Shown here: positions 1,088 to 53,135 of the stretch, one piece after another
How the letters are laid out: each line of letters starts with the position of its first letter
Position numbering within the stretch: the stretch's first letter is position 1
Assembly (NCBI GenBank): GCA_018302605.1
Contig: JAGVZN010000025.1
Coordinates: 2,693-66,692, forward strand
Origin: Candidatus Woesearchaeota archaeon
GTDB lineage: Archaea; Nanobdellota; Nanobdellia; Woesearchaeales; GW2011-AR9
Length of the DNA stretch: 64,000 nt
Reading direction: 5' to 3'
Notes under the pieces: model-generated
Told to the model about the DNA's origin: nothing
The model's database searches: none
Seen by the model: only the letters and a program-made list of their open reading frames with translations
Position numbers and translations under genes: made by a program

Positions 1088-3592
1088 TCACCCGAACCGA
1101 TCAAGACTTCTCTGCTCTTCCAATCGTTTCACTTTTATCTTGCGCATCAGGTCGTCATCACGCTCCAGCAGCCGTTGAATTTCCTGCGCCCTGGCAATGA
1201 CCGGCTGAGGCAGGCCGGCGGCCTGCGCTACGTGGAGGCCATAACTCTGGTCCGTTCCTCCGGCAATCAGTTTCCGTAAGAAGACAACGTTCCCCTGTTC
1301 TTCTTTGACGGCAAGGTTATAGTTTTTTATTCTCGGCAGCTTCTCCGCCAGGGAATTCAAGACGTGGTAATGTGTTGCAAAAAGCGTTTTCGCTTTAAGC
1401 ACGTTATGGATATGCTCAGCGACGCTCCAGGCGATGGAAACGCCATCAAAAGTAGATGTCCCTCGGCCGATCTCATCCATGATCAGCAGGCTTCGTTCCG
1501 TGGCATTATGAAGGATTGCTGCGGTTTCAGTCATCTCCAGCATGAACGTGGACTGTCCTGAACTGATATCGTCAGCAGCTCCGACGCGGGTGAAAATCCG
1601 GTCGACGATACCCACCAGCGCTTCCTCGGCCGGAACAAAGCTGCCAATCTGGGCGAGGAGGACGATCAGCGCCACTTGCCTCATGATTGTACTTTTTCCC
1701 GCCATGTTTGGGCCGGTAATCAACATCATCTCTCCGGCAGCGAGTGAAATATCATTGGAGATGAAGCGCGGCTCGACTCGTTCAACGACTGGATGGCGCG
1801 CCTTGCGTATCTGGAGGACACTCTCGTCTACGAAGTGCGGGCGGCAGTACTGATATTCAACTGCCGTCTTGGCAAAAGAGCAAAGCACGTCAAGCATCGC
1901 TAATTTCCGGGCGATTTCCTGAAATTGTTCAATGTGTTGGAGAAGATCCTGAAGGATCTGTTGATATAATTGATACTCCAATTCGTTCATCTTCTCTTCG
2001 GCGGTAAGGATCTTTTCTTCAATCAGCCTTAGTTCTTCCGTGATAAACCGTTCGCCTTGGGCCGTCGTCTGTTTTCTGATGTAAAGAGCAGGGACATTTT
2101 CGAGATTTTTCTTTGCCACTTCGATAAAATAACCAAAGACGCGGGTATATCCGATTTTGAGATGGGCGATCCCGGTCCGCTCTCTTTCCCGCTCCTCGAT
2201 ATTCTGAAGAAAACGCCGGCTGTCTCTCTTGATTGTCGCCAATTCAGCTAATTCAGGGTGAAATTCTGGTTTGATCATCCCCCCTTCCCGGATCGTAGCG
2301 GGAGGGTCATCACGCAACACTCTGATAAGAAGATCAAGCATCGGCGTCAGCAGCGGCAATGATTTTATCTCCTGAAGCAATGGCGACGAAGGTGCGTTTT
2401 GCATTTTCAGTTGAATGTTTGGAATGGACTGCAGGGAAGTACGAAGCGAGATCAGATCACGTGGAGAAGCCGTCCCATACTGAACTCTCCCCATCAAACG
2501 TTCAATGTCGGCAATTTTTGTGAGGAGAAAACGCAGTTCTTCACGAAGAATCATCTCTTTAGCCAGAATCTCCACCGCATCCAGCCGTTGTTCGATCTCT
2601 TTCACATTGAGCAGCGGCTCGCGCAGCCATTTCCTGAGCAGCCGTGATCCAGCCGCGGAATTGGTCATTTCCAAGATGGAAAGAAGTGTTCCCCGCGGGC
2701 TTCCATCGCGGATGTTCTGGAGGATTTCCAGATTGCGGAACGTACTGGCATCGAGCAGCATCGTCTGCTGGTTGCTGCGCAGGACCAGAGTCTTGATATG
2801 GGCTGCTGAATTCTTCTGTGTATCAATGACATAATGAAGAAGAGCGCCAGCCGCACCGATCATGGAAGAATCTGCACTGATTCCAAAAGAATCAAGGGTG
2901 GGCCGCTGGAAGTGATCCAACAATTTCTGCCCAGCATTTTTCTTGCTGAAAAAATAATCATCAAGCGTGTTCACGGCACAGCCTTGCGCTTTTATCTGCT
3001 GGATCAGTTCGGTGTTAACCTGCAGGCTTGCGGGAATGATGCACTCTCTCGGCCGAAGCCGGACCAGATCGTGCAGGACTGCACTCTCCTGAGCATGACT
3101 GGTTACCCAGAATTCTCCGGTGGAAATGTCGCACCAGGCGACGGCATGTTCATCTTTGGAAACGGTTAATGCCAAAAGATAATTATTTTCTTTTTCTTCG
3201 AGGATCGACGATTCGATCACCGTTCCGGGTGTTACAATCCGCACCACGCCGCGCTTGACCAGCCCTTTGGCTAGCTTTGGATCTTCTAATTGCTCAATGA
3301 TCGCCACTTTGTGGCCTTTTCGGATGAGTTTGCCCAAGTAGGGATCGAGTGCATGAAAAGGAATCCCGGCCAAAGGCGCGCGTCTTTCTCCCTTTCCCCG
3401 AGCAGTAAGTGTAATTTCCAGTTCCCGCGCCGCAGTAACTGCATCTTCATAAAACATCTCGTAAAAATCCCCCATACGCAGCATGATCAGGCAGTCGGGA
3501 TGGATTAGTTTGGCATCACGATATTGTTTCATACCCGGAGTAAGGTTCTCCGGTTGAACATCAAAGACGCTGGGGGGGTCTGCCATATCCAT
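1088..3592 (-). CDS. mutS: DNA mismatch repair protein MutS (MutS1 type)
   Basis: N-terminal TPGMKQY..GDFYEMFYEDA..LAGIPFHA, Walker A GPNMAGKST and DEIGRGTS motifs. I place the start at the ATG at 3592 (MDMADPPS), 19 nt downstream of a TTTAAA box. The longer track ORF (to 3745) reads through a repeat element. Confidence 0.9.
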   Translation of the reverse strand: MDMADPPSVFDVQPENLTPGMKQYRDAKLIHPDCLIMLRMGDFYEMFYEDAVTAARELEITLTARGKGERRAPLAGIPFHALDPYLGKLIRKGHKVAIIEQLEDPKLAKGLVKRGVVRIVTPGTVIESSILEEKENNYLLALTVSKDEHAVAWCDISTGEFWVTSHAQESAVLHDLVRLRPRECIIPASLQVNTELIQQIKAQGCAVNTLDDYFFSKKNAGQKLLDHFQRPTLDSFGISADSSMIGAAGALLHYVIDTQKNSAAHIKTLVLRSNQQTMLLDASTFRNLEILQNIRDGSPRGTLLSILEMTNSAAGSRLLRKWLREPLLNVKEIEQRLDAVEILAKEMILREELRFLLTKIADIERLMGRVQYGTASPRDLISLRTSLQSIPNIQLKMQNAPSSPLLQEIKSLPLLTPMLDLLIRVLRDDPPATIREGGMIKPEFHPELAELATIKRDSRRFLQNIEERERERTGIAHLKIGYTRVFGYFIEVAKKNLENVPALYIRKQTTAQGERFITEELRLIEEKILTAEEKMNELEYQLYQQILQDLLQHIEQFQEIARKLAMLDVLCSFAKTAVEYQYCRPHFVDESVLQIRKARHPVVERVEPRFISNDISLAAGEMMLITGPNMAGKSTIMRQVALIVLLAQIGSFVPAEEALVGIVDRIFTRVGAADDISSGQSTFMLEMTETAAILHNATERSLLIMDEIGRGTSTFDGVSIAWSVAEHIHNVLKAKTLFATHYHVLNSLAEKLPRIKNYNLAVKEEQGNVVFLRKLIAGGTDQSYGLHVAQAAGLPQPVIARAQEIQRLLERDDDLMRKIKVKRLEEQRSLDRFG

Positions 3593-3610
3593 CTTTTCCC
3601 TCTTTCCACT

Positions 3611-3617
3611 TTTAAAG
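3611..3617 (-). promoter_or_regulatory. TATA-like box (TTTAAAG) for leaderless mutS; it is palindromic and also faces element A1
   Basis: An AT box lies 19 nt upstream of the mutS ATG. The same spacing pattern is seen at many genes in this window. Confidence 0.4.
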
Positions 3618-3631
3618 ATTATTGTAATCAA

Positions 3632-3791
3632 GGGCCTAGTAAAAAAAGTCGTCCGCCTGGCCTGAAGATTGACCGTGGGAAGCGATCTCCAGAAACAGGT
3701 GCGAAAACAAGCAACTTGAATGGCAGATCCCGCAACCATTAACACAACTGGTTTTCGCCGCGGTCGCCAGGACGACTTTTTTCACAGAGCT
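3632..3791 (+). mobile_element. MITE-like hairpin element, family A copy 1 (160 nt)
   Basis: The termini AAAAAGTCGTCC...GGACGACTTTTT pair with each other. The element is flanked by the direct repeat (T)GTAATCAA at 3623-3631 and 3791-3799. It is homologous to 11819-11981 and 44910-45071. Confidence 0.7.
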
Positions 3792-6101: not shown

Positions 6102-6872
6102 TTAGCCATTCTTTTTCGGCACTAACTCTTGAGCTATCTTCCATACCTCCAGAAAGTAGAACTCCATCGCCTTGGCTAATGGACCATGTAAAATCTGTAG
6201 ATTATATCTTTCCGGCGCCTCGCTTCCTTTTAGCGTGATTTTACATTCATTGCCGTCTGCGACAAAAATAGAAAAGTTGTCCAAAGGCATGTATCTAATC
6301 TTTATCCCGGCATCCCGATATGCCTGGATGACACTCCATTTCTTTTCCGGAGGGCCGACAAGGATAATGCGCACATCTACGCCCCGTTTGACGGCAGCAC
6401 GGAATTCGTGCAGACGATGATATTTGTCCGCGACTTGTGTCATTTTCCAGCCGAGGATATAATATGTTTTCTGGACACGTTTGACCACATCACTATAGAT
6501 GTTCATTGAAGCTTCCTGGCCCTGTGTCAGGCGGATAACTTCTTTTTTTTCAGAAAACATTTTGCTGTGAAAAATTTCTATGGCATCCTGCACAAGATCA
6601 TCTTGCAATCGGTGTAATTCTTCCTTCTTTTTGGCGATTAACGATGCAACACCATTTTGCGGATGGATGGCCTCATAGCAGGTGGTGCCTCCGCTAAAGT
6701 ATTGAACCAATCCTTTTTCAACAAGCTTTTTTGCCGCGGGATAGACTGCCGTTGGTGGAAGCTGGGAAAGTTCAGAGATCTTTCGTGCATTGAGTGAGCC
6801 AAAAGCCAGCAAGGTCTCATATACTTTTGCTTCGTATCTGGTCAATCCCAATTGGCGTAGTTTTGTTTCCAT
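6102..6872 (-). CDS. TrmB-family transcriptional regulator
   Basis: N-terminal wHTH (LGLTRYEAKVYETLLAFGSLNARKISELSQLP) followed by a TrmB-type C-terminal domain. Confidence 0.7.
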   Translation of the reverse strand: METKLRQLGLTRYEAKVYETLLAFGSLNARKISELSQLPPTAVYPAAKKLVEKGLVQYFSGGTTCYEAIHPQNGVASLIAKKKEELHRLQDDLVQDAIEIFHSKMFSEKKEVIRLTQGQEASMNIYSDVVKRVQKTYYILGWKMTQVADKYHRLHEFRAAVKRGVDVRIILVGPPEKKWSVIQAYRDAGIKIRYMPLDNFSIFVADGNECKITLKGSEAPERYNLQILHGPLAKAMEFYFLEVWKIAQELVPKKNG

Positions 6873-10290: not shown

Positions 10291-11793
10291 TTACCCCTTC
10301 ACATTGCCGATTGGCTTCAACGCCACGACCGGCCGGGTAATCCCCGCTTGATCTAAAGTATCGACAACAACGTCAATGTCTTTATACGCTTCTCCTGCTT
10401 CTTCGGCCAAACCTTTCATCGTTACGGCATGAACATAGATTCCCCGTTGTTCCATATCGTGCTGTAATTTTTCGCCTTTGATCGTACGCATCGCCTGCGC
10501 TCGGCTCATCGTCCTTCCAGCGCCATGGGCCGTAGAGGCAAAAGTCGTATCGGCGCTGTCCGTCCCTAAGAGAAGATATGATCCAGTTTCCATTGACCCG
10601 CCAAGGATGATCGGCTGGCCAATTTTTTGATATTCTGCCGGTAGATCTTTTGCCCGGGCTGGGCCAAAAGCGCGTGTTGCTCCTTTGCGATGGACGAGCA
10701 ATGTTTTTTCTTTTCCGTCAATGACATATTTTTCTAACTTGGCAATATTGTGAGCGACATCATATACAAGGTTCATTTCCATCTCTTCTGCCGTCCGGCC
10801 CAAAACCTTGCTGAATACTTCACGGATGCGGTGCGTGATGACTTGCCTGTTGGCAAACGCCATATTCGCCGCACAGGCCATCGCTTTAAAATAATCTTGT
10901 CCTTCCGGCGAATAAAATGGCGCACAGGCCAATTCTTTGTCGCGGATTTCAATGCCATATTGAGGCATGACATCTAAAAAGAGCCGTAGATAATCTGTAC
11001 CGACCTGATGGCCCATGCCTCTGCTGCCGCAATGGACCATCACGACAATCTGTCCCGGCTTGCTAATTCCCATCACTTTAGCTGCTTCTTTGTCAAAAAT
11101 ATTCTCTTCTTTCACGACTTGGATTTCTAGATAGTGATTACCGCTTCCTAAAGTTCCCAACTGATCAAAGCCGCGCTTGATCGCCCGATCTGTTACTTTG
11201 CTGGGATCCGCCCAGGTGATTTTCCCGTGATCTTCGATATGTTCGATATCGCGCGGCGTGGCCAAGCCTTTCTTCAGACACCATTGTGCACCGTCACGCA
11301 TGACTTCTTGGAATTCTTCTTTAGAAATCTTGATAAAGCCTTTACAGCCGACGCCTGCCGGGACAGCTTTGTATAATTCATCAACTAACTGCTTGATCTT
11401 TGGCTGAACTTGATCGATAGTCAGATTTGTCGTCATCAGGCGCATACCGCAATTGATATCAAAACCGATGCCGCCGGGCGAGATGATGCCTCCGGCATCG
11501 ACATCAAACGCGGCAACTCCACCGATCGGAAAACCATAACCCCAGTGGCCGTCAGGCATACAATAGGCATAGCCAATAATGCCCGGTAGTGTGGCTACAT
11601 TGGTCACTTGTTCAAAAACACCCGCATCCATGCTCTTGATCAATTCTTCGTTGGCAATAATTCGTGCGGGAACGCGCATCCCTTTCTTGTACGATATTGG
11701 CAATTCCCAAGTCGTATCATTGATCTTCTTTAATTCTGGCGGAGGGCCGGCGGGTTTTTGGTCATGTTCCATAGTCTGGTTGTTCTTTGGCAT
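10291..11793 (-). CDS. rtcB: RNA-splicing ligase RtcB (tRNA exon ligase)
   Basis: Full-length match to the RtcB pattern (GFDINCG, HCGSRGMGHQ, HGAGR). The start may be the second ATG at 11772, given the TATA box at 11797-11806. Confidence 0.9.
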   Translation of the reverse strand: MPKNNQTMEHDQKPAGPPPELKKINDTTWELPISYKKGMRVPARIIANEELIKSMDAGVFEQVTNVATLPGIIGYAYCMPDGHWGYGFPIGGVAAFDVDAGGIISPGGIGFDINCGMRLMTTNLTIDQVQPKIKQLVDELYKAVPAGVGCKGFIKISKEEFQEVMRDGAQWCLKKGLATPRDIEHIEDHGKITWADPSKVTDRAIKRGFDQLGTLGSGNHYLEIQVVKEENIFDKEAAKVMGISKPGQIVVMVHCGSRGMGHQVGTDYLRLFLDVMPQYGIEIRDKELACAPFYSPEGQDYFKAMACAANMAFANRQVITHRIREVFSKVLGRTAEEMEMNLVYDVAHNIAKLEKYVIDGKEKTLLVHRKGATRAFGPARAKDLPAEYQKIGQPIILGGSMETGSYLLLGTDSADTTFASTAHGAGRTMSRAQAMRTIKGEKLQHDMEQRGIYVHAVTMKGLAEEAGEAYKDIDVVVDTLDQAGITRPVVALKPIGNVKG

Positions 11794-24040: not shown

Positions 24041-24194
24041 ACGGCTGTGGTCAAGTGGTACGCGCTAAGGTTTCTGCGGAAACCCGCTGACCTTGCCCGC
24101 GCAAGATGACACGAGCTTCCCACGAAAATATTTTCGGAATAAGCTTGTAGTCCGGGTTCGATAGATATGTAATCCGAATGTCCCGGCAGCCGTA
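24041..24194 (+). tRNA. tRNA-Gly(CCC) interrupted three times (D-loop, 37/38, T-loop)
   Basis: Hand-folded. Acceptor ACGGCTG/CAGCCGT with C2:G71, G3:C70 and A73. D stem GTCA/TGAC is separated by a 46-nt insert (24061-24106). Anticodon stem CGAGC/GCTTG with loop TTCCCA, a 19-nt intron (24123-24141) and A38. T stem CCGGG/CCCGG has an 18-nt insert (24162-24179). A TATA box lies about 28 nt upstream. Confidence 0.55.
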
Positions 24195-24198
24195 TTTT

Positions 24199-24546
24199 TT
24201 ATATTAACCCTAAGCTGACCTTTAATGCCTCATTTACTTTCTCTACTGTTTCTTCATCTAATCGTCCTATTCTTTTGATGAGCCTTTCTTTATCAACAGC
24301 TCTAATTTGATTTAGAAGTACTTTTGAAGTCTTTTCTATTTCTGCGTTCTCTTTCGTGATCAAAACCTCGATTGGAAATACTTTTTCCGTATGCTGGGAG
24401 GTGATTGGCGCAATGATGGTCATCGGGCTATATTTGTTTCCGATATCGTTTTGGATAATAATTGCAGGTCGCAATTTTTTGATTTCGTGTCCAATAGTAG
24501 GATCAAGACTTACCGTCCAAATATCTCCTCTCTTTATCTCTTTCAT
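24199..24546 (-). CDS. mazF: MazF/PemK-family endoribonuclease toxin
   Basis: IKRGDIWTVSLDPTIGHEIKKLRPAIIIQND and QIRAVDKERL motifs. Confidence 0.85.
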   Translation of the reverse strand: MKEIKRGDIWTVSLDPTIGHEIKKLRPAIIIQNDIGNKYSPMTIIAPITSQHTEKVFPIEVLITKENAEIEKTSKVLLNQIRAVDKERLIKRIGRLDEETVEKVNEALKVSLGLI

Positions 24547-24765
24547 TTAGTCCCAGCTAGGTGAAGCACTTTCCCACTCTTTGTTCAGCTCTTTGTCTTC
24601 TGTTGCTTTTACTTTATATGCGGTAACTAGCTCTCTTACAAGGTTCTTGTGTTTAACTTCAGAGACAACCCTCTTAATAACTTCATCATAGCTCTCATCA
24701 TCAGTTTTAATTTCATCTAGGACATTTTTTGTACTTTTATGAATTTTAACTGTTGTCGTTTCCAT
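24547..24765 (-). CDS. putative antitoxin (COG1753-like, VapB/MazE functional analogue)
   Basis: A small gene abutting mazF (its stop at 24547 is adjacent to the mazF start at 24546). The KIHKSTKNVLDEIK..ESYDEVIKRV pattern is typical of archaeal antitoxins. Confidence 0.6.
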   Translation of the reverse strand: METTTVKIHKSTKNVLDEIKTDDESYDEVIKRVVSEVKHKNLVRELVTAYKVKATEDKELNKEWESASPSWD

Positions 24766-24850: not shown

Positions 24851-25046
24851 GGGCGCGTAGTTCAGTGGTACTTCGCTGGAATTCCAATGGTTTGCCGGAA
24901 GCACAACAGAATGCACCGTTCGCAACGGTGAGATCTCGGGTTCAATCAGATGTCACGTCATCTGAAAGACGAAGCGACTTCGCAGATTTGCTCAGTCGCG
25001 AATAATTTAGAGAGGTCGTGAATCTTTGAAAATCCCGACGCGTCCA
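24851..25046 (+). tRNA. tRNA-Ala(CGC) with a D-loop insert and an 86-nt T-loop intron
   Basis: Acceptor GGGCGCG/CGCGTCC with the G3:U70 Ala identity pair. D stem GTTC/GAAT is split by about 38 nt (24871-24908). The anticodon arm CACCG-TTCGCAA-CGGTG is intact. T stem TCGGG/CCCGA has the loop TTCAA[24946-25031]AT. Confidence 0.75.
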
Positions 25047-28056: not shown

Positions 28057-28167
28057 GCCAGCGTGGCACAATCCGGTACTGCGTCAGCATCTGCATGACG
28101 AATCTCGAATCGAATTGTGAGCGAACTGATCCTTCTGGGATTCCCGGTTCAAATCCGGGCGCTGGCG
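28057..28167 (+). tRNA. class II-like tRNA (Ser-like: 3-bp D stem, long variable arm, G73); anticodon region interrupted and isotype unresolved
   Basis: Acceptor GCCAGCG/CGCTGGC. D arm GCA-CAATCCGGTAC-TGC. Variable arm TCC-TTCT-GGA resembles that of tRNA-Leu at 52631. The T arm CCCGG-TTCAAAT-CCGGG is intact. About 30-36 extra nt lie in the anticodon region that I could not splice unambiguously. A TATA box lies 25 nt upstream. Confidence 0.5.
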
Positions 28168-28244
28168 CTTTCTATTTGCTTTTTCGTTTGTTGTTAGCCC
28201 GGATTTGAACGGGGTCACGAACGGAGCGAAGCGGAGTGACTCGA

Positions 28245-28301
28245 CCCGGTTCAAACAGATGTTCACGTTACGGTGAGTCTAAGAAAATCCGGGCGCTGGT
28301 G
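28245..28301 (+). other. orphan duplicate of the preceding tRNA 3' end (T arm plus acceptor strand), carrying a T-loop intron
   Basis: CCCGG-TTCAA[ACAGATGTTCACG...AAGAAA]AT-CCGGG-CGCTGGT-G. No matching 5' acceptor strand is nearby. An inverted T-arm-like piece lies at 28196-28214. Confidence 0.5.
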
Positions 28302-28495: not shown

Positions 28496-30208
28496 TTAGT
28501 TCTCAAATAAATTTTCTATTTCTCTTTTTAGATATGCAGGAACACTCTCAGATACAACTTTGTATGTATCTTTATGTTTAAAGAAATCTCTTTGTCCTGA
28601 GTCAACATCTACAAATTTAGATTTTTCATACTTCTTGTATATGATGTCAAATAATTGTTTTACTGGAGATTCGTTAAATTCAAATGATTTACTATTCAAT
28701 TTTTTAAAGAGTTCATTTAGTTTAAGATTATTATTCAAATCACTGCAATGGTCATAAATTACTCTTAATACATGGAAAGAAGCTAATTTGTGAAATCTCT
28801 TTCTTTTTTCTCCGCGATAGTTTTTACCTATCCTCGAAATATAATCCCATATAATGTAAGGTATTAAATAATCTAATGGTGTTTTTTTGTCTTTAAAAAC
28901 ATCACTAAAATGGCTTGAAAATAGGTCATCCTCATGTGCGTGTGAGGTGTGGGGAAGTTTAATTATCGCCAGATTACACTTAATCAAATCTATATTTTTT
29001 ACACATTTCAAAGCATTTATTCTTGAAGATTTTGCTCTTTCTTCCCTAAATTGTCCCTCTTTTCTTTCAAAATAATAACCTAATGTTTCTAAATGTCTTT
29101 GTAATCTGACTTGGAGAGGGTGATTTGACTTTAACATTCTTTCATCAACGGGAGTTTGTCTGTTGTTTGCTTCGATTATACCATCAATTAATTCTTGATT
29201 GATTAAACTGTCTCCAATTTCAACAATCTTAGCAAACAAACAAGAATCACTAGGTCTATTTTCTCCTATTGTGCTAATAGTTTGACAACCATTTATTATT
29301 TGTGGATTCTTTAAGATTATTTTTTTGTCTTCTTTTAACAAAGTAACTTTTTCTGATAAAATAGTTATTCCATTGTTGAAATACCAGAAATTTTGAGGCT
29401 GTTCTGCCAGAGTGTCTTTCATAGCTTTATTAGGTTTCTTCGATTCACTATAAAATATTCTTACATTTCTTGAAAATAACTTTTCTTGTATTTGTTTAGC
29501 TGGCGGCAAGGCCAAGCGGTGTATCCACAGAGACTTTGTTCCTAGCTAGGTGCGGAAATCTTCTGGTTCACCGCGAGAGGCAGATTCACTTGAGATATTT
29601 ATCAAATAGGCATTAGGATTTTTTGGTCCCTCCATAAGTTCCAAATACGAAATTTCAACATCTCCTAATTCAGGGGTATGCCCATGCTTCCATTCTTCAT
29701 ATTTTCGTTCGATTTCTTTTGCGGAGATTATTTCTACGCCCTGACATTTATTGTCATAAATTGAGTAGTTTGGATTAGATTTATTTGTGGTAATAAAGTA
29801 CAACTTTACTTTATATCCGTCCTCTTTTATCAATCTTATAGCTTTGTCTAATTTTTCTTTTAAACTCGCATGGATATACGCTCTTAATTCGTAATAATCA
29901 AATGTTCCAGTTAGATACTCATAGACTTTATTTAGTTTGTTCAGTTCATCTTTGTTAAATGGGGATTCTCCAATCTCTCTAGAAAATTTAGATTGAATTA
30001 TTTTTATTGTTTTTATGTTGTGATCTATAATCACAGCATCACTTCCAGCATCTTTCCCTCTGTCTGTAATTACTTCAGTTATTTCAGAATCAGCTAAATT
30101 TTCTGTATCTTTGATATACCAAAAAATGAATGCTCTAAAATCTTTTATCTTAAAACGATTACTTATCTCATCTATCTCTTGTAAAAATTGAGTTTTCCAG
30201 TTAGCCAT
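28496..30208 (-). pseudogene. AIPR-family abortive-infection protein, interrupted in frame by a repeat element carrying a TAG stop
   Basis: ORFs 29546-30208 and 28496-29515 are in the same frame and separated by one TAG. The C-terminal part has AIPR hallmarks (LFSRNVRIFY, FWYFNNGITI). The gene is strongly AT-rich. Confidence 0.7.
29488..29585 (+). mobile_element. family C element, truncated copy (about 96 nt) inside the AIPR coding sequence
   Basis: Matches the first ~96 nt of the 9824-9979 element (read on its minus strand), beginning GTATTTGTTTAGCTGGCGGCAAGGCCAAG. Confidence 0.6.
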
Positions 30209-52630: not shown

Positions 52631-52855
52631 GCAGGGGTAGCAAAGCCTGGTCAAATGCGCAGGACTTAAGCCCCATAACGGAACACCAATCAGCATGATT
52701 GGCTTCATCGCGAAGATATCCTGTTCCTTAGTGGATTCGGGAGTTCAAATAGATGTCACGTCACCTGAAAGACGAAGCGACAATCGCTGATCTCAATCAC
52801 GATGTCGCAGGAATTCAAAAGAGGGCGTGTATCTTTGAAAGTCTCCTCCCCTGCA
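52631..52855 (+). tRNA. tRNA-Leu(UAA) with a canonical 37/38 intron (47 nt) and a 92-nt T-loop intron
   Basis: Acceptor GCAGGGG/CCCCTGC plus A73. 3-bp D stem GCA/TGC. Anticodon stem CAGGA/TCCTG with loop CTTAAG[52671-52717]A. Long variable arm. T stem GGGAG/CTCCT with TTCAA[52749-52840]GT. A TATA box lies about 27 nt upstream. Confidence 0.75.
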
Positions 52856-52861
52856 CTTATC

Positions 52862-52879
52862 GCCCCCGTGGCTCAGTGG
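52862..52879 (+). other. orphan copy of the first 18 nt of tRNA-Thr, fused to intron-like sequence
   Basis: GCCCCCGTGGCTCAGTGG is identical to 53005-53022. It is followed by CAGATGTCACGTCACCT, which is the 5' end of the T-loop intron family. Confidence 0.5.
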
Positions 52880-53004
52880 CAGATGTCACGTCACCTAAAA
52901 TGTGAAGAAAATCACATTTTTGTGCAAAAATAGGTTTAGAGTTCCTATTTTTTGCATCTGAAAGACGAGGTGACCTGCGCTGCGCTTAGTCACCAGAAAT
53001 TATT

Positions 53005-53135
53005 GCCCCCGTGGCTCAGTGGTTGAAGAAATTCCACGAAAGAGCGTGTCCTTGGTATGCGAAAACAAACAGGACAAGGTCGCGAGTTCAATTGCTGATG
53101 TCCAAAACATCATCCTGAAAATCTCGCCGGGGGCT
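53005..53135 (+). tRNA. tRNA-Thr(GGU) with three short inserts (D-loop, a 13-nt 37/38 intron, a 29-nt T-loop intron)
   Basis: Acceptor GCCCCCG/CGGGGGC. D stem GCTC/GAGC is separated by about 24 nt. Anticodon stem TGTCC/GGACA with loop TTGGTA[53058-53070]A. T stem GCGAG/CTCGC with TTCAA[53092-53120]AT. Confidence 0.7.

Follow-up and report, generated by a model that had tools for sequence, protein, structure and literature searches.

Interrupted tRNA genes in the window

We analyzed a 64,000-nt stretch of a Candidatus Woesearchaeota archaeon genome (assembly GCA_018302605.1, contig JAGVZN010000025.1, positions 2,693 to 66,692 of the forward strand), hereafter the window, in which the T loops of a tRNA-Ala gene and a tRNA-Leu gene are interrupted by closely similar inserts that we call family-A introns. 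The window is archaeal by gene content, encoding aEF-1alpha, Spt5-NGN, TrmB, and RtcB, and has a G+C content of about 44%; its sequence is identical to that of a metagenome scaffold from the Rifle aquifer. Both ARAGORN and Rfam at gathering thresholds reported 0 tRNAs in the raw sequence. The 64 kb hold at least five tRNA genes, missed by these standard finders because of the T-loop and other inserts that the genes carry; five were found by reading the intergenic DNA, each with one to three inserts. When the inserts are removed in silico at the sites predicted by the bulge-helix-bulge (BHB) rule, all five are recognized by ARAGORN, with normal cloverleaves, as Ala(cgc), Leu(taa), Thr(ggt), Gly(ccc), and Ser(cga), and the tRNA-Ala retains its G3:U70 pair. 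A preliminary description of this DNA, made by a model from the letters alone, had read T-loop inserts as introns of tRNA genes, and after removal of the inserts the exons are bona fide tRNAs in the following genes:

24041-24194, plus strand: tRNA-Gly(CCC), with an insert in the D loop, an intron at 37/38, and a T-loop mini-intron of 18 nt
24851-25046, plus strand: tRNA-Ala(CGC), with a 38-nt D-loop insert (24871-24908) and a T-loop intron
28057-28167: tRNA-Ser(CGA), with two inserts and a T loop without an intron
52631-52855, plus strand: tRNA-Leu(UAA), with a 47-nt 37/38 intron (52671-52717) and a T-loop intron
53005-53135, plus strand: tRNA-Thr(GGU), with D-loop, 37/38, and T-loop mini-introns

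Homologous inserts in the T loops of tRNA-Ala and tRNA-Leu

Within the tRNA-Ala and tRNA-Leu genes, the family-A features are these:

24947-25032, plus strand: family-A T-loop intron of tRNA-Ala, 86 nt, between positions 59 and 60 (±1 nt)
24948-24974, plus strand: 27-nt conserved core AGATGTCACGTCATCTGAAAGACGAAG in the tRNA-Ala intron (core model R1: 45.2 bits, E = 4e-10)
52750-52841, plus strand: family-A T-loop intron of tRNA-Leu, 92 nt, at position 59/60 (±1 nt), with its core at 52751-52777

The tRNA-Ala insert starts with CAGATGTCACGTCATCTGAAAGACGAAGCGAC and ends with AGGTCGTGAATCTTTGAAAA; its tRNA-Leu counterpart starts with TAGATGTCACGTCACCTGAAAGACGAAGCGAC and ends with GGGCGTGTATCTTTGAAAG. 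Common to both are the 5' end AGATGTCACGTCA(T/C)CTGAAAGACGAAGCGAC and the 3' end CGTG(A/T)ATCTTTGAAA, and the shared blocks extend over 31 nearly identical nt on the 5' side and 18 nt on the 3' side. When the inserts are aligned, column identity reaches 86%, with the first 33 and last 18 columns nearly identical and the middle divergent. On this evidence, the two tRNAs carry homologous introns at one and the same T-loop position, as the preliminary description had proposed, and that position is 59/60. The insert sequences were also as it had described them. Its coordinates gave the right sites, though the BHB rule, which we used to set the boundaries, places both inserts one base further to the right, a shift within the 1-nt ambiguity that results from A/T runs at the junctions.

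The similarity is far from what chance would produce. The 19-mer GATGTCACGTCAYCTRAAA occurs three times in the window (at 24949, 52752, and 52882), against an expected mean of 0.05 and with 0 of 100 shuffles reaching three. With the covariance model of the core, the tRNA-Leu intron scores 42.9 bits and a third copy, beside tRNA-Thr, scores 27.8 bits; the displaced 3' half of that copy (52938-52970) scores 16.6 bits, and nothing else in the 64 kb exceeds 7.5 bits.

Signatures of BHB introns

The T arm and insert together fold as a BHB motif, in which the T stem and a 7-nt loop mimic an anticodon arm. Exon bases 54-57 (UUCR) pair with a YGAA lying 3 nt ahead of the 3' exon; the 5' bulge is made of bases 58-59 and the first intron base, the 3' bulge of two intron bases and T60, and the inner helix of the intron ends, AGAU(G)UCACG with CGUGA.AUCU. 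The terminal inverted repeat of the element, AGATGTCACG with CGTGA(C)ATCT, reaches about 27 nt in the introns of MAG274, a single metagenome-assembled genome (MAG).

The BHB fold, which the preliminary description had proposed to test, is near-canonical in tRNA-Ala and tRNA-Leu and exact in tRNA-Thr. In tRNA-Ala, the fold runs from the T stem through a 3-nt bulge, UUCA(A):(U)UGAA, and a 2-3-nt bulge to AGAU.UCACG:CGUGA.AUCU (z = -2.8), and the minimum free energy (MFE) fold of the tRNA-Leu T arm and intron is likewise of the BHB type (z = -3.1). The tRNA-Thr T arm with its 29-nt insert gives the exact hBHBh' series of helix, 3-nt bulge, 4 bp, 3-nt bulge, and helix. Among 30 curated T-loop introns from the window and related genomes, the central helix is compensated: exon G57 is paired with an intron C in six of seven cases and exon A57 with a T in 18 of 23 (Fisher p = 3e-4). 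RNAalifold, run on 12 full T-arm-plus-intron sequences, recovered the local hairpin alone because variable linkers misaligned the T stems. From these signatures of BHB introns at position 59/60, we infer both splicing and the exact junctions.

Distribution of the family

We gathered further members with the exact-match core pattern GATGTCACGNCANCTGANAGNCG; L-numbers denote loci in related genome or metagenome contigs. In 185,579 species genomes, the pattern matched 25 stretches, of which 23 belong to DPANN-type archaeal MAGs and two to bacteria. The archaeal MAGs are labelled Woesearchaeota, Nanoarchaeota, "archaeon", or, for three of them, Methanosarcinales with DPANN-style tRNAs, and the bacterial matches, in Acetobacter and Burkholderiales contigs, are single and chance-like. 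No Thermoproteales genome was matched among these species genomes. Metagenome contigs yielded 23 matching stretches and viral contigs 0. In genome scans with a 16-base pattern, the matches listed were swamped by chance bacterial ones, and one locus, L227, was added. Apart from the chance-like bacterial matches, the 27-nt core AGATGTCACGYCATCTGARAGRCGRAG is confined to about a dozen DPANN genomes labelled Woesearchaeota or Nanoarchaeota, and the window's tRNA-Ala core is identical or nearly so to copies in DPANN MAGs.

At most archaeal loci, the core follows GGTTCRAAN in the T loop. The host tRNAs are of at least 10 species, among them Ala(CGC, GGC), Leu(UAA), Ile(UAU), Ser(CGA, UGA), Arg(UCU, GCG), Thr(UGU), Gly(UCC), and a class II tRNA. 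The shortest intron has 43 nt (L006) and the longest about 290 nt (L001), so the earlier characterization as a family of about 90 nt has to be replaced by one based on what is conserved, namely the 27-nt core and the terminal inverted repeat. In a single case (L129), a family-A intron sits in the anticodon loop, at 37/38 of tRNA-Ser(CGA). The anticodon loop sequence there, CTCGAA, resembles the T-loop TTCGAA; the intron's 3' end, CGAG, matches its new exon, and the BHB architecture is like that of the T-loop copies.

Exact matches to the core number 21 in MAG274 and are spread over 13 stretches; many are located at the ends of contigs, and many are nested, as in AGATGTCACGC/AGATGTCACGCC... (here and below, a slash marks a junction). 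In the T-loop introns of three MAG274 tRNAs (L001, L058, L100), the whole element is inverted while the ...TGAAAG/T at the junction stays in place. Other copies are free-standing, made up of the core and hairpin but lacking the 3' repeat, and precede divergent gene starts or 5S rRNA by about 40-55 nt, about 10 nt beyond the B recognition element (BRE)/TATA box. Tandem arrays of 59-71-nt units, each a core followed by a GGGGATTCAC...GTGAACCCC hairpin, are found directly beside promoters at L134 (1700-2074), L144, and L147/L153 and may be either small-RNA genes or nested insertions; at L144 (2260-2510) two tandem copies diverge from the 5S rRNA promoter.

A third copy beside tRNA-Thr and duplications of host genes

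The third window copy lies between a piece of tRNA-Thr and the complete gene:

52862-52879, plus strand: duplicated 18-nt tRNA-Thr 5' piece GCCCCCGTGGCTCAGTGG, ending in the D loop and identical to 53005-53022
52880-53004, plus strand: truncated long-form family-A copy, 125 nt, without the 3' inverted repeat (fold z = -3.6)

The order is thus 18-nt tRNA-Thr 5' piece, 125-nt element, tRNA-Thr. Two extra hairpins split the core of this copy (52881-52896 and 52955-52970). The preliminary description had seen a short segment opening with the family motif after an orphan tRNA-Thr fragment; the core copy is real, but the segment is in fact a 125-nt long form that follows an 18-nt duplication of the tRNA 5' end. 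Such a duplication beside the copy points to DNA-level rearrangement. With its two extra hairpins placed identically within the core, the long form is also found in L227, as a complete T-loop intron, and in L097, and a similar hairpin module is present in L081.

Comparable layouts exist elsewhere. At L141 (1690-1760), a duplicated tRNA 5' piece, a core-bearing insert, and the tRNA follow one another as at the window tRNA-Thr, and L005 (minus strand, upstream of tRNA-Ser at about 6500-6760) and L009 have a like layout with 40-50-nt inserts that lack the full core. In these three loci, the 5' duplicates measure 13-14 nt and lie 40-50 nt upstream of the full tRNA. Downstream of genes, L151 reads tRNA, T8, antisense element, and a 16-nt tRNA 3' piece, and L140 (1400-1640) and L123 (2780-3000) read 5S rRNA, T8, antisense element, and a 30-38-bp 5S 3' piece that includes the T8 terminator. 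The host-gene duplications flanking copies span 13-38 bp overall (13, 14, 16, 18, and 30-38 bp). As a separate observation, the 5'-duplicate layout may be a general signature of D-loop insertion repair or acquisition in these genomes.

Intron subtype and tRNA identity

We compared the middle regions of the introns, that is, the intron minus the core and 3' end. In this region, the window tRNA-Leu intron is closest to an Ile(UAU) intron of another genome, at 73% identity; Ser(CGA) and Arg(UCU) introns share 76%, and Ala(GGC) and Ser(UGA) introns 79%. For one and the same tRNA in two genomes, the values are 51% for Ile(UAU) and 42% for Arg(UCU). Most of the best middle-region matches cross isotypes, although support is moderate with sequences this short.

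Gain or transposition is favored over simple vertical descent because intron subtype ignores tRNA identity and the core also occurs outside tRNAs, in both orientations. The preliminary description had argued from homologous introns in non-homologous tRNAs to transposition or gain, and its argument is strengthened by the same three features; splicing itself is a prediction from the motif. That the events took place at the DNA level is suggested by the two orientations, by copies in non-transcribed positions, and by duplications that run past terminators.

The 27-nt core

Scores of the core model over 45 DPANN loci are bimodal: 57 of 65 matches lie at about 40-48 bits, three at 27-32 bits, and five below 16 bits. 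Outside the core, the introns are 21-83% identical across members. The bimodality and the divergence of the rest argue for constraint on the core itself, though the members were ascertained with core patterns. Within the core, AGATG/CATCT changes to AAGTG/CACTT, and the Y11-R22 pair is C-G in 14 cases, U-A in five, U-G in one, and unpaired in two. This covariation fits either a hairpin with a 3-bp pseudoknot, in free copies, or a closing helix with a CGYC[AUCUGARA]GRCG hairpin, in the closed intron. Of these alternative folds, the former has a hairpin of 5-6 bp beside the 3-bp pseudoknot, and the latter a 4-bp hairpin with the invariant loop AUCUGARA, set within a three-way junction.

Neither the gathering-threshold Rfam scan of the window nor permissive scans of both loci detected a ribozyme, riboswitch, or C/D family; the permissive scans returned a sub-threshold tRNA match and chance matches, and for snoRNA or C/D families nothing beyond a 9.5-bit chance match outside the intron. 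A kink-turn (K-turn) or C/D reading of GAUG...CUGA was considered and rejected, as the AAGUG/CACUU variant keeps Watson-Crick pairing and loses the sheared G·A register, and there is no C box. Hammerhead, pistol, and preQ1-like readings were also considered and found no Rfam support. We regard the core as a candidate structured RNA or protein-binding motif; our leading guesses are that it is a binding site for the element's mobilizer or for an RNA-binding protein.

Other inserts at the T-loop site

Three shorter T-loop inserts in the window are of doubtful membership. The first is the 29-nt insert of tRNA-Thr (53093-53121, TGCTGATGTCC...CCTGAAAA), and the others are as follows:

24163-24180, plus strand: tRNA-Gly T-loop mini-intron, 18 nt, AGATATGTAATCCGAATG, with exon TTCG and intron CGAA as a compensated central helix
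28245-28300, plus strand: orphan T arm and acceptor 3' strand that carry a degenerate insert of 32 nt (28256-28287); the intact tRNA-Ser(CGA) lies 77 nt upstream

The orphan-arm insert reads CAGATGTTCACG...AAGAAAA and has three of the four central-helix pairs (TTCA versus AGAA). All three inserts resemble family A only in a GAT(G)...ATC hairpin and the 3' end, and the core model at E<=10 detected neither the tRNA-Thr nor the orphan-arm insert. The ...GAAAA/T ends of these two are also seen in unrelated T-loop introns of related genomes. More generally, unrelated introns at 59/60 that end in ...YGAAAG/T are present in related genomes (L078, L100, L125, L058, L129), and since unrelated families have it too, this common 3' end is a constraint of the splice motif. 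The likeness of 3' ends that the preliminary description had noted is structural. Of the five members it had named, the tRNA-Ala and tRNA-Leu introns and the copy at 52881 are recognized by the core model, while the short tRNA-Thr insert and the orphan-arm insert fail this homology test. The tRNA-Thr, tRNA-Gly, and orphan-arm inserts may be deletion derivatives of family A, though no homology could be demonstrated. The position of the orphan T arm, downstream of a tRNA-Ser gene whose T loop has no intron, fits the pattern of gene-fragment duplications described above.

A second, unrelated 59/60 family, AGCCAGCAATCT...GGCGGGCATAAAGC...TTGCAGCTTGRAAG, is common to different tRNAs and genomes (L100, minus strand at about 3292 in reverse-complement coordinates; L125; L078), a sign that introns in this lineage may favor position 59/60 as a general hotspot. 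The inserts of the window tRNA-Ser are a 15-nt one at 30/31 (CATCTGCATGACGAA, reminiscent of the core's 3' half) and an intron of 14 nt at 37/38. Downstream of this gene, an inverted T-arm copy (28197-28211) is the reverse complement of 28146-28160, and a core-like stretch (28213-28241) lies between it and the orphan T arm.

Other features of the window

The window also encodes part of the machinery on which tRNA splicing depends, as host equipment outside the element:

10291-11793, minus strand: full-length RtcB tRNA-splicing ligase (Pfam PF01139, E = 1.5e-171)

Among the neighboring genes, a PemK-family toxin and a small DUF7557 partner are encoded between tRNA-Gly and tRNA-Ala (24199-24765, minus strand), and an AIPR abortive-infection protein (28496-29515, minus strand) adjoins the tRNA-Ser/orphan-arm locus, giving the surroundings of the tRNA cluster an island-like gene content. 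A five-domain bacterial-type MutS is encoded at 1088-3745 (minus strand).

Discussion

The analysis shows the anatomy of the inserts, their fold, the compensatory pairing, the distribution of the family, and its incongruence with tRNA identity. We think it likely that these reflect BHB introns that are spliced out and form part of a repeated, mobile element family, a reading in which splicing, the way the element moves, and what the core does are predicted from sequence. Under this model, the T stem and its 7-nt loop would stand in for the anticodon stem-loop, and pairing of UUCR (54-57) with the YGAA near the intron 3' end would create two bulges of about 3 nt holding the cut sites, and the terminal inverted repeat would supply the inner helix. 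Cleavage at both bulges would fall to the archaeal splicing endonuclease and ligation of the exons to RtcB; the intron released in this way would probably be made circular. Insertion in tRNA genes would be tolerated because the host splicing machinery removes the element.

The introns would then belong to a non-coding repeated element confined to a DPANN group, built of a near-invariant 27-nt core followed by a variable hairpin, with the rest diverging. Such an element would have spread among tRNA loops, chiefly into the universal T-loop TTCRAA, once into the look-alike CTCGAA of tRNA-Ser(CGA), and also into non-tRNA sites. A DNA-level spread seems most likely, given copies that lie in either orientation, precede promoters, or are bordered by duplicated pieces of host genes. 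The family shares several properties with miniature inverted-repeat transposable elements (MITEs): it has terminal inverted repeats and many dispersed copies, as in MAG274, with intergenic and inverted ones among them, although the window itself has only three copies. An IS200/IS605-type hairpin end was also considered and is unsupported, as the hairpin abuts the junction without a guide-sequence spacer and no TnpA or TnpB is encoded nearby.

Several observations weigh against this model. Among the 50 open reading frames (ORFs) of at least 150 aa scanned in the window, which covers 64 kb of the genome, none encodes EndA, the splicing endonuclease, or a transposase, integrase, or reverse transcriptase, and at the loci inspected, where the ORFs are unannotated, no ORF is bracketed by inverted cores as an autonomous partner might be. 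The T-loop copies lack a direct target duplication, and the duplications at other sites vary in length, unlike the fixed-length ones of classical cut-and-paste elements. In tRNA-Ala and tRNA-Leu, the MFE central helix is 5 bp with a 2-nt 5' bulge, a relaxed form of the motif, and a 4-bp/3-nt alternative is available. Because members were collected by exact match, conservation of the core is partly a matter of ascertainment. The covariation stems from few events and the sequences are short, which leaves the incongruence between introns and tRNAs suggestive. In addition, concerted evolution among tRNA genes could mimic transposition.

What the core does is a question on which we are more tentative. 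One possibility, which we hold to be doubtful as a whole, is that the core is the cis-acting signal of undescribed non-autonomous DPANN mobile elements, which would rely on the host endonuclease and RtcB to keep their insertions silent and would move at the DNA level, leaving variable target-gene duplications of 13-38 bp. Alternatively, the core may be a functional RNA module (a protein-binding platform, a compact pseudoknot or three-way junction needed for T-loop maturation, or a stable, possibly circular, small RNA released by excision) for which mobility is secondary or absent, with the free-standing copies as independent small-RNA genes. A near-invariant core amid flanking intron of 21-83% identity, covariation that supports pairing, the CGYC[AUCUGARA]GRCG hairpin of the closed intron, and a long form with two extra hairpins in the window and at least two other genomes (L227, L097) would all suit such a module. 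Against this, MAG274 appears to use the whole element in antisense as a T-loop intron, so that splicing would not need a sense RNA of the core; the T-loop site also houses unrelated introns in genomes that carry the family; no Rfam family, C/D box, or K-turn consensus is matched; and the TATA box near the free-standing copies is placed for the neighboring divergent gene. We consider this proposal unlikely, although it is compatible with the spliced mobile element that we favor.

The introns might instead be ancient and vertically inherited in each tRNA, kept alike by gene conversion through the T-arm sequence and never mobile. Some tRNAs do carry a family-A intron in several genomes, as expected from descent: Ile(UAU) in L003, L139, and L125, Ala in the window, L010, and L227, and Ser in L005, L142, L152, and L156. 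The window tRNA-Ala intron is moreover closest to the Ala(GGC) intron of another genome, at 71%. Most best matches nevertheless cross tRNA identity, and there are inverted copies, nested arrays, and copies that lie outside T loops altogether, ahead of promoters, next to 5S rRNA, or in an anticodon loop. Conversion through tRNA exons cannot put copies in intergenic DNA, and we regard the vertical account as improbable. Least probable is that the interrupted genes are pseudogenes or attachment-site scars of integrated elements whose inserts are never removed. In favor of this, tRNA-Ser is accompanied by an orphan 3' T-arm fragment and tRNA-Thr by a duplicated 5' fragment, and toxin-antitoxin and abortive-infection genes flank the tRNA cluster as in genomic islands. 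Against it, all five window tRNAs are interrupted and yet, after removal of the inserts, have intact, well-paired exons with identity elements kept; compensation in the BHB helix extends across genomes, about a dozen of which share this design; and decay is limited to the orphan fragment (three of four central pairs, no core).

Mobility of archaeal tRNA introns has precedents. In Thermoproteales, BHB introns have transposed among tRNAs (Fujishima et al. 2010, Mol Biol Evol 27:2233, as summarized in PMC4090602 and PMC4033280), with similar introns in tRNAs of different identity, common multi-intron tRNA genes, and a spread suspected to occur at the DNA level. The present family is similar in that homologous introns occur in different tRNAs of one genome (the window tRNA-Ala and tRNA-Leu) and are incongruent with tRNA identity. 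It differs in belonging to DPANN archaea and not Crenarchaeota, in the concentration of most copies at one site, T-loop 59/60, and in having a near-invariant 27-nt core with a terminal inverted repeat, copies outside tRNAs in both orientations, and high-copy repeats. Its introns, at 43 to about 290 nt, are also longer than those of Thermoproteales, which are reportedly short.

In Caldiarchaeum subterraneum, a tRNA-Thr 5' fragment, inserted DNA, and an intron-containing tRNA-Thr follow one another, an order that has been attributed to the integration of a mobile element (Sugahara et al. 2012, PMC3293823). Positions 52862-53135 of the window have exactly that layout, but the insert in Caldiarchaeum is a 1.8-kb recombinase-encoding element, whereas that of the window is a 125-nt non-coding family copy (40-50 nt in L005, L009, and L141) with no recombinase nearby. 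A conserved, structured, functional-looking RNA within a BHB tRNA intron is also known from the tRNA-Trp of Euryarchaeota, where the intron houses a box C/D small RNA that splicing sets free, often as a circle (cited in PMC12558985). The family-A core, by contrast, has no C box (RUGAUGA) and no Rfam match, its GAUG...CUGA pairs as a covarying Watson-Crick hairpin with no K-turn, and it sits in the T loop of many tRNAs instead of at 37/38.

MITEs and eukaryotic introners are short, non-coding, multi-copy elements with terminal inverted repeats that insert in either orientation, nest within one another, and are tolerated in genes by virtue of host splicing. The window family is likewise short, non-coding, and multi-copy, with inverted repeats, both orientations, and nesting. 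It differs in its predicted dependence on a protein-only tRNA endonuclease and a ligase in place of a spliceosome, and in the absence, at the loci inspected, of a fixed-length target duplication and an autonomous partner. Full-text literature searches returned no description of the core, of a T-loop-centered DPANN family, or of copies outside tRNAs. Transposition of archaeal tRNA introns is known, and what is new here is a structured, probably mobile DPANN variant centered on the T loop and marked by a 27-nt core.

DPANN archaea show increased tRNA disruption, and their tRNA sets are not fully predictable in some genomes (PMC5829648). Genes interrupted in the way described here may bear on these unpredictable sets, and missing tRNA predictions in turn affect completeness estimates and metabolic inference. 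The origin and spread of archaeal tRNA introns at non-canonical positions have been a question since the Thermoproteales work, and a sharply defined core with many independent, inverted, nested, and promoter-proximal copies, together with duplicated gene fragments, could reveal a mechanism of insertion. The invariant core is worth a biochemical test as a structured RNA or protein-binding motif. If the core is indeed the cis-acting signal of non-autonomous mobile elements, these DPANN elements would be an archaeal counterpart of eukaryotic introners, whose insertions in essential tRNA genes would be phenotypically silent.

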